Origin: Octopus vulgaris
Taxonomy: Eukaryota
Reading direction: 5' to 3'
DNA length: 64,000 nt
Assembly: GCA_951406725.2 (NCBI GenBank)
Contig: OX597818.1
Span: forward strand, 11,780,001 to 11,844,000
Shown: positions 2,650 to 64,000 of the stretch, piece by piece
Layout of the letters: the number at the start of each line of letters is the position of its first letter
Position numbering within the stretch: the stretch's first letter is position 1
Position numbers and translations under genes: made by a program
Notes under the pieces: model-generated
Seen by the model: the letters and a program-made list of their open reading frames with translations, nothing else
What the model was told of the DNA's origin: nothing
Databases searched by the model: none

Positions 2650-4410
2650 CTCTCTCCACTCCTTTTCTGCTTGGCACTGTCACCTCTATCTGATATGCTA
2701 AATAGAACTGGATGCGGATATAAATGTTACGGCAAAACGATCAGCCACCTTTTATATATGGATGACCTAAAACTATACGCTGCAAATGACAAACAGCTGG
2801 AAACACTATTAAAGACAGTTCATGGATTTACCAAAGAAATAGATATGAAATTTGGATTAGAAAAATGCGCCAAAGTAACCATGAAAAGAGGAAAACTAGT
2901 TAAGAGTAACAACATCACACTACATAAAACCAATGAAATAAAAGAATTAGACCAAAGCCAAACTTACAAATACTCAGGAATCCATGAACTAGATAAGACA
3001 CAACACACACAAATGAAAGAGAAAATAAAAAAAGAATATTATAGACGAGTTAGATCAATACTAAAAACAGAGCTCAATGCTAAAAACAAGATAATAGGTA
3101 TCAACACTTTAGCTGTCCCAGTTATAAGTTACAGCTACAATATCCTTAACTGGACACGAAATGAACTGTCCAAAATAGATAGGAAAACAAGAAAAATACT
3201 GACAGGATCTAGGATGCATCACCCAAAATCTGACATAGAAAGACTATATATACAACATATAGAAGGTGGTAGAGACCTTATACAGCTGGAAAACTACTAT
3301 AAAATAACCACCATAGGACTGCAAAAATACCTACTTCAGAAGGAAGGAAAACTGATCCAGATAGCAGCAAAACACGAGCAAAACAAAAAACTGTTCTCAG
3401 TATTTAAGGAAGCTGACAAATACAAACAAGAAATCATACCACCTAATAAACACAAAGAAGAAGAAGAAGATGATGAAGAAACAACAAAAGCTATAAAACA
3501 AATGAAATCCAAACTAAAAATAGAACAGCAACGAGCCATGATAAAACGATGGCAAGAAAAACCCCTTCATGGTAAATACTGCACTAAACTAAACGCAAAA
3601 GAAATAGACAAAGAAAAATCCCAGCAATGGTTGAGAAGCTCAGGACTCAAAGCAGAAACAGAGGGATTTTTAATTGCAGCACAAGACCAAAGCCTCCCCA
3701 CCAGAAATTACCAAAAACATGTAATGAAAAGAAATATTACAAGTAACTGCAGAATATGTGGAGATGGACAAGAAACAATAAATCATATTATCTCTAGCTG
3801 CCCAGTCCTGGCTAAGAAGGAATATATTCACAGACATGACAGAGTTGGAACCTACATACATTGGAAGCTATGCCAACATTATGGAATAACAACAGAAAAA
3901 AGATGGTATAGGCATACACCAGAAAAGGTCACAGAAAACGAGAAAGCAACCATACTCTGGGATATGCCGATACACACAGATAGAGAAATTAAGGCCAACA
4001 GACCAGATATAGTTGTCAGAGATCTTGAAGAAAAAAATGCTTTCTAATTGATGTATCAATACCGGCAGATGACAACGTGTCTCTAAAAGAAATGGAGAAA
4101 CTCTCAGAATACAAAGACCTGGAAATAGAGGTAACTAGAATGTGGAACCTGAAAACAGAAACAATTCCTATCATAGTAGGTGCATTAGGCATGATAAAAA
4201 AATATTCAGACAAATACATAACAAAAACACCAGGACTTACAAACACATATAACATACAGAAAATTGCACTACTAGGCACTGCACACATCCTACACAGAAC
4301 ACTTTCCATACAATAACCATCAGAGCATCGCAACAAATCACAGCACATACCCAAGGCACACAGAGCTGCGCTCGGTAGTGAAGTGAAAGCACGCTATAAA
4401 AATAAAACTA

Positions 4411-7895: not shown

Positions 7896-8825
7896 ACACT
7901 ATATAAATAAGGTAGAAAACGAAGTTTTTAGTTTAGTAATTCTTTTATTACAAAATTTATTATATACTTTCAACTGCAGTCGATTTATATTGTTGGTACA
8001 CTCAGGCAATAATTATTTTCTCTAATGAGTTTGTATATGCATGTTTGTGTAGATGTGTGTTATTGTAATAATTATTTTTAACAAAATAGATAGAATATGG
8101 ATGGTAAATCAAATTAATACACTTGTCAATGTTACCTAGTGGTTGTCTTTTGAGATGCGACAACGGTCATCGTTTGTTACTGAAAGAAAGCTAGTTCACA
8201 CATATATTCACATACTGCCCTTGTACACGCACACACAAGCACATATATACTCACACAGAGTTGAAACGCTGTTTAATTTTACTTTTCAGCGTTGTGTGTT
8301 CACCATTCCACTTCCATTGCACACGCGCGCGCGCATACCTCCCTTTTACATACACACACATATACTCACGCAAAGTTGAAACGCTGCTTGAGTTTCTTTT
8401 CCCGTAGAATTTCCATCATCCCACTACCAGTTTACCATTACTGCTTCCTTTCACATTCATATGTTGTGATGATGGAAAAAACACAAGAATATCATTATAG
8501 TAGATTCTTTTACTTGTTTCAGTCATTTGACTGCGACCATGCTGGAGCACCGCCATTAGTCGAACAAATCAACCCTAGGACTTATTCTTTATAACATTAC
8601 TTACATTATTTACATTTGACGGATATTCGGGCTTGTATTAGGAGACTTTTCATAGATCACTACTATTACTACCACAACAGGTCATTTATAGGTCACTTGA
8701 CCATTTAAGAAGATTCTTATGTCTTCTTCTTCTTCTTCTTCTTCTTCTTCTTCTTCTTCTTCTTCTTCTTCTTCTTCTTCTTCTTCTTCTTCTTCTTCAG
8801 AAAAAGGTAATTAAAATTCATTAAA

Positions 8826-9888
8826 ATGACAGATCTATCGAACTTTCAAAGCGGTCAAATTGTTGGTTATCGTATGGCAGGCGCTAGCGTAACGAAAACA
8901 GTCGAAATGTTTGGTGTATCAAGAAGTACTGTCTCGACAGTAATGGCAACCTTTAAGAAAGAGGGAAAAGCCTCCTCGTCGAAACAAAATTCCGGAAGAA
9001 AGCCAAAACTTTCAGATAGGGACCGTAAAACTCTGACGCGAATTGTTAGAAGAGTTCACAAAAGTATAGCTCACAAAATTACTGCAGAGTTTGATGACCA
9101 CCTCGAGAACCCAGTTTCCACAAAAACCGCTCGCGGGAGCTGCACAAAGCCGGATTTCACGGAGGGCTGCAATCAGAAAACCACTACTTTCAAAAACAAA
9201 CGTTGCAAAACGTTTAGAGTGGAGTAAAAGCCTATGGAAGAATGCTATTTTCTGGGACGAGTTGTTTTTTACCTTATTTCCGACCACTGGCCGAGTATAC
9301 GGGCGGAGACAGTCAAACGAAACATTTGACCCAGGCTGCCTTCTTCCAACTGTTAAACATGGAGGAGGATGTGTGATGATCTGGGGCGGGGGGGGGACTA
9401 TATCTTGGAAATCCGCCGACCCAATGGTTTCCCTTCATAGCAGAATTAATAGTCAAGACTATTTAAGCATTTTATTTGATCAAATTCATCCTATGGTTGC
9501 GGAACTCTTTCCGGAGGGAAACGCAATCTTTCAGAATGATAACGTACCAATTCATACAGCTAAGCTTGTTACTGAATAACACGAGGAACATTCTAGTGAA
9601 GTTGAACATCTTATCTAGCCACCACATTCTGCAGATCTCAATACTATTGAACATTCATGGTGCATTTTAGAAAAACAAGTAAGGAATCGATATCCTCAAC
9701 CATCATCACTACAAGAATTGGAGACTGTTTTAGCTGAAGAATGGACAAAAATTCTTTGGAAACAATTCAAACTTTGTACGAGTCCATACCTCATAAAATT
9801 CAGGGGTAATTATTGCCAAAAGCAGTCCTACCCCATATTAAGATAAATTTGCTTGAAATGTTAAGGTGTTTCCATTTTGTCCAAGCCC

Positions 9889-13940: not shown

Positions 13941-14329
13941 CATGCAGGAAGTAAATAGACACCTTTAAATTTCAAAATCTTTTATTTGATATTAATTGGT
14001 TGAAGGATAGGTTTTCTTCTAACTACTCGTTATAATAACCAAGCTTATGCAGATATGTAATACACGTTCTTAGACTAACTTCTAGCTGTTTTGTAATGTC
14101 AGAAGCCTTCGAACTGGGTTCGTTTTCCACAATTCTTTTCAAATAACGAAGCTTCTTTTCCTAGAGCCAGGTTCCGCTGGGATGAGAATCTGTTGATTCT
14201 CTTCCTTGGGTTTTGAATTGCACTATAATTCTATTAACAGCAGCAAGAAGAATTTGAAGATTTTCGGCAATTTTTCGGTGGCTAAGACCAGCCTCAGGTT
14301 GCCCAACAATACGACCTCTTTGAAATATA

Positions 14330-15558
14330 AGGGGAATTCAAAATAACCCATTATTAGGTTCGCAAGAACAAGGGCTGCTTTCGTTTCCATCGCAATTCCG
14401 CATTTCTGACGATAGTATATGTCATCAAATAGAAAATAATTGTTCTGAAATATAAATTTTAAAGATTCAATGATAAAGATCTGATTTATGCGTTCCGTGA
14501 GCACTTCGGGGTACTTTTCCAACCAGAATTTAATTACTTTTATTCCATGGTCATGTGGAATGTTAGTGTAAAAATTGATAACATCGAAGGTAACCAATAT
14601 CGCCTCTTCATTAATTGTTTTTGGTAGGTGTTCTAGCATGTCTAAATCGTCTCTAATGAAACTTTTGATGTATTTCAGCAAGGATTTCAATAGGATATCA
14701 AGAAAATTGCTAGGGCGGTGGGTTTCACAGGCTGGCCCAGCTACAATGGGTCTTAAAGTTAAGTCTCCTGGGGTTTGGATATTTATGTATTTGTCTGGTG
14801 ATTGTTTGCAGGCTTCATTGATTATCTTGCTCTTGTGTATTTTATGAAGGCCGTAAAAAAAACTGGGTTTACATTTGAAGTTCGTGATGTAGTCTGTTTC
14901 TTTTTCTCTCAAGCCTTTTCCATGTAGAAGAATTAAGGATGCAAGATTTTTCATTGTTTTTTTTTATAGATTATAACTTTTTCGTAGAAGGCCTCGTTTT
15001 CTAGTATGGATAATACTAGGTTTTTATAGTGTTCTGTGTCCATCAGAACTACAGCACTTCTTTTGTCTGCTTCTTTAATTATCAGTTCTTCGTCGTTTTG
15101 TAGTTCAATTAGATTTCTTCATTCCAGATTGTTGAGGTTCGAATTAATTTTAATGGATGTATAAGGGAAATTTTGGATATGATCGCAGAAGTCATCCAGT
15201 GTTTTATTCCTACCCTTGTGTGGAAGGTAATTACATCTGTTTTTGACTAGTGATTCATCTTCGTGGTTGTAGTCAGTTAGTGCTTCTGCGAGTCGTAGTT
15301 TTCTGTACAATTCCGAAATACTGTCTTTAATTTCATTATGGTTAGATCTTCTTGGGATTGGAGTAAACTTTAAACCTTTGTTTAGAATGTTGATTTTTGT
15401 TATTGAGAGAGTTTTCTTTGATAAGTTAATTACTTTGAGTTTCTCCTGTAAGTTTTGTTCCAACGTGTGTCCCTGTTTCTCTCCACTTGGTCTAAAAAAT
15501 GTTTATTGTAATTTGGTTGGTCGAAGTTATTATTGGTGTTATTATTGTTATTAATTAA

Positions 15559-17261: not shown

Positions 17262-18268
17262 CACAGGCATGGCAGATGTAAATAGACACCACATAAACCG
17301 TCGTTTTATGTTTATTCTAACTTATTGACACTTTGGTAGACGGACAATTCATCGACAGACATTTTTGGCCGACAGCCAACTTACAGAGAGGACAATTGTG
17401 TGGTGTGGTGCAGAGTCCTGTTGCCAGACATAGGGTATTCCAGCAGCCACCCTCTTGGCCCAGGGCAGCACATCCTTCTCCAGGCACTTGTGTTGAGTTT
17501 GATGCCGTGTGGGAATTGACTGTCGGCGAATATTCTATCGACGAATTGTCTGCACACGGACATTTTTATGCTTCAGGTTCTGTATGTGACTGTTTAATCA
17601 TGTCACGTACAAAAGGAACCTTGGAACTGTCTGAATTTCAAAAAGGCCATATTGTGGGTCAATCTGAAGGTGGACACAGTCAATATTAAAAAGGCCATAT
17701 TGTAAGCCAATCTGAAGTCAGCGTAAAATCGCAGAAAAACCTGGGATCCCGCTTTCTACAGTTAATAGAGTGTGCAATTCATCAGAGAGGGGAAAGAGTC
17801 CACATCACCTCGCCCAGGTTGACCAGGGCTCTATGTCAGAACCCTTCTCTTTGTTAAGAGAAGTGTGGAGGATAATTCTTGTTGCAAGGCCTCAGACATA
17901 GCAGCACAAGTTGATGCCAGTCCCTGAACAGCTGTCAGGTATCTCCACAAACTTGGTTACTATGGCAGAGCAACAACAAAGAAGTCACTTCTTTGACCAG
18001 TCAATATCAAGTGGAGAAAAGATTGGGCCAGTGAGATGGTGGAGAGGCCACTAGCATTTTGGGAGGCTGTCATATTCTCCAATGAGTCCAGATTTGCTGT
18101 ATTTTATAACAGTGGCCGAGTGTGGGTCTAGAGACTCTGTGGTCAAGAATTTGACGTGAAAAGATTGCAGCCAACAATGAAACATAGCAGCTATTCTGTG
18201 ATGGTCTGGGGAGCAATTTGGAGCAATAGTCATTTAGAGCTGGTGGAGTGTGAAGGAAATATTGACAC
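17262..18268 (+). pseudogene. Tc1/mariner transposon relic (left end and truncated transposase)
   Basis: MSRTKGTLELSEFQKGHIVG, VIFSNESRF, PTMKHSSYSVMVWGAI. Left end cacaggcatggcagatgtaaatagacacc resembles 13936-13963. Confidence 0.8.
17335..17558. mobile_element. MITE nested in the Tc1 relic
   Basis: Roughly 40-bp imperfect TIRs: gacaattcatcgac...gccgacagccaa and ttgactgtcggcg...tcgacgaattgtc. Confidence 0.6.
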
Positions 18269-18278
18269 AAATAAAAAC

Positions 18279-19430
18279 GTGTGACCGTTTAAAGTTAAAG
18301 CCATTGCTTGTGTATCATGCATACAACCCCCGTGCCCCGAAGAACATACCCAAGGCATCTCTCCCTGTTATATGGATGGTTAATTCAAAAGCATGGATTA
18401 CTGCTGCTGTTTTTGAGGATTGGTTCTTCAATCATTTTATCCCAACAGCAGAGAATTACTGCAAGAAGGGAATTCCTTTTAAGGTTTTACTTATCTTAGA
18501 TAATGCTCCTGGCCACCCGCAAAACATCATAGATTTTGACCCCAACGTTACCGTCATATACCTCCCTCCGAACACCACGTCTCTTCTGCAGCCAATGGAT
18601 GAGGGAATAACTGCTATCTTCAAGAGTTACTATATGAAGCGTACGCTGCGGCAAGCAATAACTGCAACTGATCTTGAGTCCATCACACTTCGTGACTTTT
18701 GGAAGAGATACGTTATCTACAAGGCTGTACAGAACATAGCAGCAGCATGGAATGATGTACTGAGCACGGCTATGAATGGTGTATGAAGGAAGCTATGCCC
18801 GCAATTTGTGAATGACTTTAAGGGGTTTGATAATGTTGCCGCTAGCAAAACGTTGGTGACTACGAGCAAAGAACTGGAAATGGACTTGGAGGAGGAGGAT
18901 TCCAGATTTATTTGAAAAAGACAAGCAGCCCGTGACGAACGAGCATTTGATTGAGCTTCATGAGCAGCAAAATAATGGAGAAGAGGAAGTCGAACCTGAT
19001 CCACGTCACTTTACCATTAAGAAAACGCAGCAAGCACTTGCATATATCGAAAAAGGTCTATGTTCAAGGATATGGATCCAAATGCTCGACGCTTTTCCAA
19101 GATTATGGGGACTTGTCACGAAGCTTTTGCTCTTAATTGTGTAATCCTTGAGGAAAAGAAGACAATTCAAGGAACTCTCAACCTGTTTTTTAAGTGCATC
19201 GAACAACAAGAACAGCCAGAATCAGCTGTTAATGTTGATCCACAGCCATCTACATCCGCAGTGTAAACCGCCAAATTGTATGCACGTATTAGTAAATTTG
19301 AAATAATTTTGGGTTTTTTTTTATTATTGCAAAACAGTAATAAATACTGAATTTGTATTTTAAGCTTTAAAAAGGCTTTTATTTTACCATGTATTATTGC
19401 AAACCGCATTCATAAATAAACTATCCGCGA
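18279..19430 (+). pseudogene. pogo/Tigger-type DDE transposase relic
   Basis: KLKPLLVYH, NSKAWIT, FEDWF, VLLILDNAPGHP, YLPPNTTSLLQPMDEGI, acidic C-terminal tail; stops and frameshifts. Confidence 0.88.
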
Positions 19431-21096: not shown

Positions 21097-21349
21097 ATAG
21101 AATGGTTGTATACTGTCAATCTAACAAGAACGTAACAGTAGGGGGTACACCACCGTTGTATAGCCCTAGGAGGCATCGAACGCCTCCTGACAGCTTCGAC
21201 ACATTTTTTCCCTTATATGTATATAAGGACACAGGGAAAAACTGTGTCGAAGCTGTCAGGAGGCGTTCGATGCCTCCTAGGGCTATACAACGGTGGTGTA
21301 CCCCATACTGTCACGTTCTTGTTAGATTGACAGTATACAACCATTCTAT
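21097..21349. repeat. Fold-back inverted repeat (about 117-bp arms, about 20-nt loop)
   Basis: 21097-21213 is a near-perfect reverse complement of 21234-21349; lies between (TA)n arrays. Confidence 0.92.
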
Positions 21350-22690: not shown

Positions 22691-22726
22691 CTTTTACGTT
22701 TCGAGCCTACGCTCTTCAACAGAAAG
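22691..22726 (-). ncRNA. Minimal type-I hammerhead ribozyme motif (A6U variant)
   Basis: Minus strand reads cttt-CTGTTGA-a-gagc gtag gctc-GAAA-cg-TA-aaag. Same architecture as 16647-16681 with different but paired stem I. Confidence 0.6.
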
Positions 22727-22923: not shown

Positions 22924-23141
22924 CACACACATGCATACATATATATATCGTCAGTAAATTATAAATCCGAAAAAGAAGCACACTCTAAGTTATAGAGCAG
23001 TATAGTATTTAGAGAAAGGTAGTTATGGCCAGTTCATATGACCGGCGGCCATTCGGGTCTAACGAAACATATATAAAGCTAAGCGCTTTATGGGTGCAAA
23101 ACCCTGGGTAACTCTATGAAATGGGTATAACTATCCTTCTC

Positions 23142-23213
<72 letters not shown>

Positions 23214-23313
23214 ATGATGAGGGAGATAAATTAATATTAATTTTAATATCAATTTAAAACCAGTAGTCCAGCATACAAAAATCTGAGAAATCAGAGAAAA
23301 TTCTAATATATGT

Positions 23314-23705
23314 GTATATTGGCAGGGCTTACTGCTAGGGAGTCGGCCGTATGCTAGAAATAGACCATCAACGATCAAACTACAAGGAAATTCTCTAGAG
23401 GAAAAATACAGCGAACACCAGAACCAACTTTGGCGGGCATGACATATGAAAATTTATATTAAAAACAGAATTAAATGCATACCTCGGTTTCAGCCTTAAC
23501 AAAAGAATTATTTACGTAATTCAAATGTCCGTGCTTCTTCAGTGCATCCGTTAATTCTGTTCTTAATATAAATTTTCATATGTCATGCCCGCCAAAGTTG
23601 GTTCTGGTGTTCGGTGTATTTTTCCTCTAGAGAATTTCCTTGTAGTTTGATCGTTGATGGTCTATTTCTAGCATACGGCCGACTCCCTAGCAGTAAGCCC
23701 TGCCA

Positions 23706-23711
<6 letters not shown>
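23314..23711. repeat. Fold-back inverted repeat (about 160-bp arms) enclosing a hammerhead
   Basis: 23314-23474 is a near-perfect reverse complement of 23550-23711; flanked by TA-rich arrays. Confidence 0.93.
23475..23547 (-). ncRNA. Type-I hammerhead ribozyme with intact core
   Basis: Minus strand reads atgca-CTGAAGA-agc...gaatta cgtaaa taattc...gct-GAAA-cc ga gg-TA-tgcat. All core nucleotides are present and the cleavage triplet is GUA. Confidence 0.75.
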
Positions 23712-23748
<37 letters not shown>

Positions 23749-23750
23749 CG

Positions 23751-23811
23751 GATAACTGAAGAGATGGCGGCGTGGGTTTCCACCCCGGCATCCGAAACTC
23801 GGAGTTTTATC
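23751..23811 (+). ncRNA. Type-I hammerhead ribozyme motif
   Basis: gataa-CTGAAGA-gatggcgg...gtgg gttt ccac...ccggcatcc-GAAA-ctc g gag-TT-ttatc. Stem II has a 1-nt register defect. Confidence 0.62.
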
Positions 23812-23932
23812 ATGGCTACTGAATAATTGTCACATATTAGATTTACAGATAAATTCCTCTATTTACATAATATCGAGGTCTCTTTCATTCTTTGGTTGTC
23901 TTACCATTTTTATCAATATATATATATGTGTG

Positions 23933-31600: not shown

Positions 31601-34128
31601 GTTGTAGCAGGTGATGGTGGGAAACAGTTTTCATAATGGCTCTTCCAAGAATCATCTCCTCTCACAATTTGAGAAACTATATTTTTTTTAAATATGTACA
31701 TTAACCTTTTAAATGTGAAAATTTGTCCTAAAAAGACAGAAATTTCACAAATTAGCCTTAGAAGATGCTAGTTAGCTTAATAACAAAATGGTCTAACAAA
31801 ACTGGTATTTGTTTTACTGAAAAGATGAAAGGTGAAGTCAACCTTGGTGGAATTTGAACTCAGAACATAAAGACAAATTAAATGTTTGCTAAGAATTTTG
31901 CCCAGCATGCGAACAATTCTGCCAGCTCACCACTTTAACAACAATAATAATAATGATGATAATCCTTTCTACTAAAGGTACAAAGCCTGAAATTTTAGGG
32001 GAGGAAGCTAGTTGATTACATCGAGACAACTAGTACTTAATTTATCAACCCTGAAGGGATGACAGGCAAAGTTGACTTTGGCAAATAATATTAATTTTTG
32101 GCTTTCTTTTTCATTTTAAAAATAGCTCATGTAAAACTTTGAAGGTAAATGTTTGGTTATATATCAATTTCATAAAGATAAATAAAAAACACAGAAGTAA
32201 TTAAAAAAGAACAAAATACAAGTGCGTTTCATTAAGAAATTATATTTTTATACACTTCATACATATATATTTCTTTTCTTTTTTTAAATAAAGAATATTT
32301 TTAATTTGATGTTCAATAATAATTACAATGTTTTCTAGCAATGGCACAAGGCCACAAATTTCAGGGTAAGAGTATATATAATTGATTATATTGAACTTCG
32401 TAGTTGACTGGTACATATTTGATTGATGCTGAAAGGATGAAATGGAAAGTCGAAACTCGGTGGGATTTCAACTTCGAATGAAAGCAATATAACTAAACAA
32501 CCACCACCATGATTTTGATAATAACAATGGTTTCTGATTTAGCACAAGGCCAACCATTAAGGGAGAGTGTTAGCTGATACACTGTTCCCAGTTTTTGGCT
32601 TGATATTTTGCTTTATTGACTTCAGGGGGAGGAAAGGCAAAGTTAACCTCAGCAGGATTTGAACTCCGGATGTAAAGAGCCAGAACAAATACAAAGTAAT
32701 GCATTTTTTTGTTTTTGATGAACTTATAATTTCATCAGCTCACTGTTATTTATGCTTTAAATTTTAGAGTCAAGTTTTGTTGGAGGAAGAAGATATAGTC
32801 AACTGCATTGACCCTGATACATTATGGATATTTATTTCATGTATCCTGGACACATTTGAGGGGGCAGAAAAGGTATAAAGAGCCATGGTGGGATTTTAGT
32901 GCATATGTGTGTTTTAAGTTTTTGTCTAAAGTTTATGCCTCATGTGTGTAAAAAGATACAGGACCTACTATGTTAAAACATTCCTCCGTGGTTTGTCATC
33001 CATGGAGCACAAAAAAATTCAATCCTACATGTGAAATACTGACTTGATTATAAGGAGGAGATGAAAGAGGAGAACTAATTTGTGAATGCTGCTCACATTC
33101 CCATGATCAGTTTGACTACTGTGTAGTGGCAAATTATATTCACTCTCCATGTTAGTCCACATAAAAGGCTTTCAAACTTCCTTTTTATTTCTTGCTATTA
33201 AATCTGTGAACTTCATTAATTGTACACAAATTTGATTATAGAACAAATACAGTCTAGCTGCAAATACTGTGAGATGTGAAGAATTCTCTATGTGCCACAC
33301 AAACACCAGAGGAAGTGAGTCTACATGCAGTTGTCTAACCTTCTAGATGTAGCAGCCAAGTTTTCTCTAAATCATACCCTATAATGTTTAAAAAAAGGAC
33401 AAAAATTTTTGTAGATCTTACATATCTAAAATAAAAATAGAAGATAAGATGGACATGTATAGAATGACTTTAAACATAGGTCTGGTTGTTGAGGGCTGAT
33501 CTGGGGCTAAAACAAGTGATATGAAAACAAATTAACCTTTTACTGGATAACATATGAACCCCGCAACTAGCAACAGATGAACCCTACAAATGGCAACAGA
33601 TAAAAGTGTCTGTTTGATGGTGCCATGAGCAAGAAGAGTTATCAAAAACGTTCGTTCCATGCATAAATGAACCAATAGATGAGGGGAGCTTCAGTAATAA
33701 AAAAAAATGAATAAATAGAGAAAATTTCTAGGCCCCACCACACTTGGAACATTAAAAAACAATGAAATGAAGAAGCCTGTTGCATTGTCACTCAAGCAAC
33801 TAAAAATAACAGCTAAATCTCCCTCAAAATCACTCACTGTGTGTAGCCCTAGATTAAATAAAGACAGCGTGGTCATGACTGGAATGGCACTTAATATTGT
33901 CAGTTTTTTTTTCTTTCATATTTTTTTTTGTGGCAAAGCATGAGGTTGCACTGATTTGGAATTTGAAATGCAGAGTCATAAAAATCACTATCCTATTTCA
34001 ACCATTACGCATTAAATTAATTTGAGGCAGTTACTTCAGAGGTGGGACCAAAATCTTCATCAACAAACTATAAACAGTATTGTTTTGATATGTCTCATAC
34101 ATATGTGTGTGTGTGTGTATATACAAAT

Positions 34129-34424
34129 AGTATTAATAAAATAGGAGATGGAATGTGTAATAGATTTTATTGGGTACAGCACCTTTTGACCATTCTGGAT
34201 CTCTTCAGGTACATCAATAAAAAGTCTCACTAGAGATTTCTTGAGTTGGCTTAATTCTTGAGCCCGCTATAAGTCCATCAAATTAAAGAATTTGATGGAC
34301 ATATAGCAGTACGTAAGCCGACTCAAGAAATCTCTAGTGAGACTTGAAGAGATCCAGAACAGGTCAAAAGGTGCTGTACCCAATAAAATCTATTACACAT
34401 TCCATCTCCTATTCAATTAATACT
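34129..34424. repeat. About 300-nt rod-like inverted repeat
   Basis: The left half is the reverse complement of the right half, with two bulges and apex aatt-aaag-aatt. Confidence 0.92.
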
Positions 34425-34564
34425 GTTACCCCAACCATCACTATGAAGCTATGAAGTCCCTGCAGTAAATCTATGGATAACAACAGATAATCGAAACTGT
34501 GACAGTGCTTTACTCATCATCCATTTATACATTTTGTACAATTTCTCCATTATATATATACATA

Positions 34565-35530: not shown

Positions 35531-64000
<28,470 letters not shown>

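Follow-up and report, generated by a model that had tools for sequence, protein, structure and literature searches.

A hammerhead motif at the apex of a hairpin in octopus DNA, most likely a Penelope-like insertion pattern

A near-perfect hairpin with a hammerhead ribozyme motif in its spacer, found in 64,000 nucleotides (64 kb) of Octopus vulgaris DNA that we refer to as a whole as the window, very probably goes back to a single insertion event in which Penelope-like element (PLE) machinery mobilised a high-copy repeat that carries the hammerhead. The geometry of the locus, the membership of tail, arm and hammerhead in one repeat family, the family breakpoint at 23552 and the common template of the two arms are directly supported, while the PLE enzyme, the priming route and the timing are the parts of this reading that we infer. 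Hairpin and motif most likely represent a known PLE insertion pattern rather than a new viroid-like element, and the window copy appears as a non-coding stub that is probably a poor cutter.

The inverted repeat has arms of 169 nt each (23306-23474 and 23551-23719) with three mismatches and a spacer of 76 nt; minus their TA-rich outer ends, the arms (23313-23474 and 23551-23712) measure 162 nt and are 98.8% identical, with two mismatches. The minus strand of the hairpin folds at -316 kcal/mol, a value reached by none of 100 shuffles, and the near-perfect inverted repeat around a hammerhead spacer that the first-pass annotation had described is borne out. On the minus strand, the main copy runs from 23552 through the hammerhead and the left arm (23313-23474), which in this copy is the element sequence downstream of the hammerhead, to about 23212, and it closes with a one-sided 3' extension (the tail, 23212-23312) identified as family sequence by contig depth and bridging contigs. 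The right arm (23551-23712, plus strand) is an inverted 5'-truncated copy without the tail, set head to head with the main copy with a 2-nt overlap; it mirrors 23474-23313 and starts 5 nt past the predicted cut site. The hairpin unit is asymmetric, with about 100 bp more element (23212-23312) between the left arm and an (AT)33 microsatellite that forms the left target flank (23145-23210, no strand assigned), while the right target flank, a (TA)20 microsatellite (23706-23745, likewise without strand), merges into the TA-rich arm end. The description of the hairpin as embedded in (TA)n consequently holds for the right arm, which touches such a tract; the left arm is separated from it by the roughly 100 bp of element, so that (TA)n borders a larger unit and not the hairpin itself. 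The two microsatellites bracket the whole unit as a microsatellite target would, although the 59 tandem-repeat rows of the window are a weak point of this argument. No target-site duplication is readable, both flanks being (TA)n, and neither a second element copy in the 64-kb window nor head-to-tail tandem units at the hairpin locus were found.

On the minus strand the spacer reads atgca CUGAAGA, a stem II of 44 nt, then GAAA ccgagg UA ugcau, with the GUA triplet at plus-strand positions 23480-23482; the letters confirm both the complete type I core and the triplet position given in the first-pass annotation, and all conserved core bases are present (C3-U4-G5-A6-N7-G8-A9, G12-A13-A14, A15.1-U16.1 and the NUH triplet). 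In minus-strand order, the motif comprises the 5' strand of stem I (23543-23552), at whose outer end, 10 nt before the core, the main copy has its 5' end and family contigs cease matching (23552); the CUGAAGA core (23536-23542); the 44-nt stem II (23492-23535), with a base of 3 bp (AGC/GCU), a middle part of 4 bp and a distal stem; the GAAA core, a palindromic helix III (A-CCGAGG-U) and the GUA triplet (23480-23491), with the predicted cut between 23480 and 23479; and the 3' strand of stem I (UGCAU, 23475-23479), which two G-U pairs can lengthen to 23473, giving a stem I of 5 bp, or of 7 counting the G-U pairs. A strict hammerhead pattern matched once in the window, as it also did in one of 30 first-order Markov copies. 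With a looser descriptor, the window gave five matches, one of them with a perfect core, and eight third-order Markov copies gave 0-2, none with a perfect core.

The term 'intact', which had been applied to this hammerhead, suits its core letters but not its structure. Stem II of the window copy opens with A-U and not with the G-C pair described as highly conserved (PMC4209133), and its distal part has lost the closing pair through a rare change at 23511; helix III in the monomer consists of 2 bp and four further bases, and the predicted minimum-energy fold leaves the hammerhead core unformed. Secondary-structure prediction places the active fold 3.1 kcal/mol above the minimum and assigns it about 0.3% of the ensemble, whether or not the arms are included. 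The palindromic helix III is predicted to form a homodimer at -8.6 kcal/mol with tandem G-A, and the hammerhead of the window copy probably needs a dimer or a protein. Similar properties are on record for PLE hammerheads, which are described as slow type I motifs with a short palindromic helix III and low activity that act as dimers (PMC4209133; review PMC6765202), and the anole PLE hammerhead is reported to cleave only in the presence of protein (PMC11167929). An Rfam search, proposed in the first-pass annotation as a check, returned no hammerhead match at the gathering score nor at E values up to 10, for which the long stem II is a likely cause.

The family was traced in contigs from four of 24 listed public sequencing runs (X1, X2, X8 and X13), aligned to 23212-23705 at a likeness threshold of 80% (860, 780, 288 and 59 contigs, respectively). 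Twenty of the 24 listed runs share part of the window, at most 55% of the sampled words, and may come from other individuals or species; none of them is recorded as an RNA run, and X13, which we guess to be one, served solely as a source of family copies. Of 2002 pieces, 32 were read individually, as were 24 of the 222 loose ends, and the contigs drop rare variants. Summed contig depth over 23212-23534 rises to 364,000 in X1 and 453,000 in X2, the single contigs listed having depths of 5-236, and the hammerhead-bearing family is plainly abundant, though summed depth does not equal copy number. The tail shares in this abundance (summed depth of 38,000-364,000 over 23212-23313 in X1), and contigs bridge from tail to arm in X1 (record 4, 23252-23375) and X2 (record 19, 23281-23439). 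The true 3' end of the family may lie beyond 23212, where the aligned stretch began.

At the other end, the family parts from the window sequence at 23552. Depth in the bin 23552-23568 amounts to 1.0%, 0.9%, 0.3% and 5.2% of that in the bin 23518-23534 in the four runs, and in X8 and X13 it comes wholly from contigs ending at 23552 or 23556 (13.86 vs 13.9 and 4.75 vs 4.75); in X1, X8 and X13 depth is zero over 23569-23602. No contig bridges into the right arm in these three of the four runs, while in X2 a bridge is possible; right-arm depth is uninformative because arm contigs fit two places. Readable family copies run past 23552 into different sequence and not into a second arm: X8 record 32 and X13 record 15 go on for 26 and 116 nt, respectively, into unlike sequence, and the native sequence upstream of 23552 continues for at least 116-187 nt. 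Both contigs show five differences, which match five listed variant sites outside the stem II base, and they therefore share the AGC/GCU base of the window copy. Of three listed joints, each seen in one contig, one reads as a deletion and two as fold-backs with other breakpoints, namely 23556 to 23628 in X13, with 35 letters between (mirror position 23397), and 23305 to 23661 in X1 (mirror position 23364); the fold-back joints have sides of 30 and 23 letters and are of a type that carries a tool warning. At all five arm sites checked, both arms carry the window letter, which is the minority letter in all four runs (the other letter reaching 69-100%), and the arms therefore derive from one template. 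Such a common template is expected of inversion at insertion; later gene conversion could give the same outcome.

Pairing within the family points to conservation of the ribozyme fold. The majority 3' side of stem II is GACC (82-96% at 23492 and 73-88% at 23494), and GGUC, which follows CUGAUGA at the end of two X13 contigs, would in the phase we infer pair with it over 4 bp beginning with G-C. The subfamily of the window keeps the stem II pairing with other letters (AGC/GCU), two A-to-G changes in the distal stem retain G-U pairs, and 98-100% of the depth at 23511 shows a base, lost from the window copy, through which a distal stem of 7 bp with a GUAA cap is closed. Three hammerhead helices with pairing maintained across variants are found in the family contigs, and judging from these letters the family seems to have kept the motif up, with slight damage in the window copy.

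The layout of the locus is that of PLE insertions as far as the cited passages describe them. At their 5' end these frequently have a 5'-truncated copy in inverted orientation, together with a tail at one end only, and microsatellites are favoured as targets (Craig et al. 2021, 10.1101/2021.04.23.441226). Head-to-head arrangement with a short overlap predominates among the inverted copies, which were attributed to self-priming on the antisense strand (Arkhipova et al. 2013, PMC3846280), and the tail was interpreted as the stretch between two reverse transcriptase (RT) start sites, both target strands being cut and extended (Frangieh et al. 2024, PMC11167929). With the endonuclease-bearing PLE insertions described there, the window locus shares the head-to-head inverted 5'-truncated copy, the short overlap, the extension at one end, the AT-rich or microsatellite target and a hammerhead about 100-270 nt from the 3' ends. 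It differs from them in being a stub without an ORF for which no autonomous partner was found, in the register of its junction with stem I, and in a one-sided tail of about 100 bp compared with the published 30-40 bp (10.1101/2021.04.23.441226; PMC3846280). The first-pass annotation was thus right to link the hammerhead to Penelope-like elements, but its view of fold-back as unusual for them does not agree with these sources, in which an inverted 5'-truncated copy is the described layout (10.1101/2021.04.23.441226; PMC3846280). At the level of the motif, what is described of PLE hammerheads (Cervera and de la Pena 2014, PMC4209133) agrees in the type I fold, the 5-bp helix I, the long helix II and the small palindromic, dimer-suited helix III, and opposite-strand motif pairs 100-700 bp apart are described there, like the hairpin and its neighbour at 23756 in the window. 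Unlike those hammerheads, the window copy has no extra base between A9 and stem II, opens stem II with A-U and has a 44-nt stem II with two internal loops; helix III is kept, so that it is not a strict minimal motif.

In the insertion we propose, a PLE RT/GIY-YIG protein would have cut a (TA)n tract and copied the element RNA, beginning at its 3' end (23212) and stopping at 23552, 10 nt beyond the hammerhead core on the upstream side. The same template would also have given a shorter second DNA (the mirror of 23313-23474), linked to the first in head-to-head orientation. This could have come about through fold-back on the first cDNA or because two cDNAs begun about 100 nt apart annealed, and the one-sided tail would be the leftover of two start sites separated by that distance. 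The hammerhead occupies the apex because no other part is carried by one copy and missing from its partner: the main copy reaches 10 nt past the core on the upstream side, and the inverted one begins just downstream of the motif. In the parent element, the ribozyme would most likely be slow and dimeric or protein-assisted and trim precursor RNA. Membership in PLEs proper is rated only as likely because the tail is about 100 bp long and no RT frame is linked. Starting from the stub, no RT/GIY-YIG frame tied to the element was found, and an RT fragment of the window (14223-14963) shares no sequence with it (Pfam gave 0 matches and PDB nothing useful). An 80-aa open frame at 23214-23453 was considered as a PLE N-terminus and rejected; its one match in 1.84 billion proteins was a spurious one to an FG-GAP repeat protein.

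The arms continue stem I, as had been annotated, and the junction lies exactly in its register: in the cDNA, the 23552 end pairs with 23473-23479 through 5 bp and 2 bp separated by a 3-nt bulge. This raises the tentative and on balance unlikely idea that the ribozyme shapes the insertion, in which the inverted copy would be a run-off cDNA made on hammerhead-cleaved RNA, with two cDNA ends aligned for head-to-head joining by the DNA complement of stem I. The exact register speaks for it, as does the fact that the window copy and the neighbouring hammerhead both stop 10 nt upstream of their core. Against it, this is one copy, chosen for the register feature; neither of the two other fold-back joints is at the cut site; hammerhead-free Naiads also produce inversions (10.1101/2021.04.23.441226); and cleavage was dispensable in vitro for PAc (PMC11167929). 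In equilibrium folding of the DNA, cDNA snap-back at 23552 ranks 166th of 253 (p 0.037) and is not favoured; among duplex sites, the stem I partner comes second (-5.8 vs -6.5 kcal/mol), and snap-back priming by this route is unsupported. A literature search, with thin coverage of subscription journals, found no publication on hammerhead-guided inversion. If ribozyme-guided joining were true, PLE hammerheads would act in the making of inverted pseudo-LTRs (pLTRs), and ribozyme-capped hairpins would be a recurring product.

The main alternative to a PLE proper, which we hold to be improbable, is a parent family of tandem non-coding retrozymes with a monomer of >450 nt, and not the pLTR of an autonomous PLE, the fold-back having been made by PLE enzymes in trans at insertion. 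The 2-bp helix III plus tetraloop does resemble invertebrate retrozyme hammerheads (PMC7229834), no ORF link was found, the native sequence extends at least 116-187 nt upstream, and retrozymes have been proposed to be non-autonomous PLE derivatives (Li et al. 2026, 10.64898/2026.07.22.740005). The locus and the metazoan non-LTR retrozymes described in two papers (Cervera and de la Pena 2020, PMC7229834; Li et al. 2026, 10.64898/2026.07.22.740005) are also alike in being non-coding and of low GC (39%), with a type I motif and a 2-bp helix III; the locus departs from them in being non-tandem, with one ribozyme per strand and without the canonical loop contacts of helices I and II. Further points against such a parent are that there is no tandem copy at the locus and none of the three listed joints goes back, that the 44-nt stem II misfits the canonical 4-bp helix II with loop contacts (PMC4209133), and that 340 + 116 nt exceeds the 150-450 bp range given for retrozymes (PMC7229834).

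That the 400-nt rod-like RNA with its apical hammerhead is itself the mobile unit, a fixed non-autonomous hairpin retroelement as the first-pass annotation supposed, now seems very improbable. The in-register extension of stem I by arms that are 98.8% identical would suit it, and a subfamily too rare for the simplified contigs, or private to the species of the window, is possible. The annotation had named other genomic copies lacking the second arm as evidence against itself, and this is in part what the contigs of other copies show: they leave the window sequence at 23552, the junction is unbridged in X1, X8 and X13, even copies sharing the stem II base go on into other sequence, and the tail stands on one side only. 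Viroids and viroid-like RNAs are similar in the rod-like fold, the length and the hammerhead; the present case is genomic DNA, linear, a near-perfect palindrome by duplication, with the ribozyme in one polarity only. A single copy cannot yield a circle or an RNA of unit length, since this chromosomal DNA offers just one cut site on each strand. A 19-nt arm pattern had 0 matches in viral contigs, and a single metagenome match to a 20-nt core pattern was dismissed as a chance 22-nt match inside an apparent bacterial coding region.

An assembly or library fold-back artefact on a simple stub would account for near-perfect arms and for a junction that no contig bridges in three runs; we regard it as highly improbable in view of the two arm mismatches, the 76-nt unique spacer, the one-sided tail, the older diverged fold-backs elsewhere in the window (79% and 71%) and the fold-back joints that independent runs show at other points. 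A MITE (DNA transposon) with 162-bp terminal inverted repeats, a TA target and a captured hammerhead, which the long TA-ended repeats and the Tc1-like and DDE_1 remnants of the window might suggest, is extremely improbable and largely refuted by the contig-bridged tail, since its left 'terminus' continues into 100 bp of the same family and arm plus hammerhead form contiguous family sequence in one orientation only.

Read as a PLE-type insertion, the locus is ordinary retroelement debris from one more hammerhead-bearing family, and thousands of similar stubs are to be expected. The role of PLE hammerheads in transposition has been called unclear (10.1101/2021.04.23.441226), and it could be tested directly across the genome with this young, high-copy family, whose breakpoints can be read. 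If the locus is transcribed, it would yield a near-perfect dsRNA of 162 bp, a plausible ADAR or Dicer substrate. The long dsRNA anticipated in the first-pass annotation thus stands on that condition, but not as a consequence of cleavage: it exists because of the inversion and not because of the ribozyme, forms with or without cleavage, and would only be nicked by it.

The window as a whole is microsatellite-rich animal DNA with several further fold-backs. A second, unrelated type I hammerhead at 23746-23915 (plus strand; core at 23756) has a GUU triplet, one bulged C in stem II and a palindromic helix III with a predicted homodimer at -11.5 kcal/mol; it begins directly after the (TA)20, 10 nt upstream of its own core, faces away from the first and lacks an inverted arm, and Rfam gave no hammerhead match for it either. 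Two related minimal hammerhead-like motifs at 22722 and 16677 (both minus strand), with one core mismatch each and an ACGU-type helix III, are likely ends of another PLE family. An older fold-back at 34126-34427 carries a hammerhead-like remnant in both arms (CUGAAGA, a GAUC stem and AAAA replacing GAAA) and a second palindrome nested at its centre, and another at 21097-21349 has 117-nt arms, 97% complementary, a 19-nt spacer and a (TA)n end, in which scans found no hammerhead. More fold-back or inverted-end repeats lie at 53298-53502, 23001-23151 and 47641-48512, and one 500-bp element, MITE-like and with inverted ends that have diverged, is present twice (49296-49807 and 61869-62369), at 81% identity.

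Exons of a P1B-type ATPase, presumably a copper-transporting, ATP7-like enzyme by its motifs, extend over 62500-38200 on the minus strand, the same strand as the hammerhead; its terminal exon was not found by motif. Broken RT frames at 14223-15502 (minus strand), which we take to be PLE-like in appearance, have Atlas neighbours in eukaryotic clusters with DUF8422 and RVT_1 in 15-41% of members. The remaining mobile-element traces, all on the plus strand, are a LINE-type RT with zf-RVT (2650-4047), a Tc1-like transposase remnant recognised by HTH matches only (8811-9579) and a DDE_1 transposase remnant (18238-18786).
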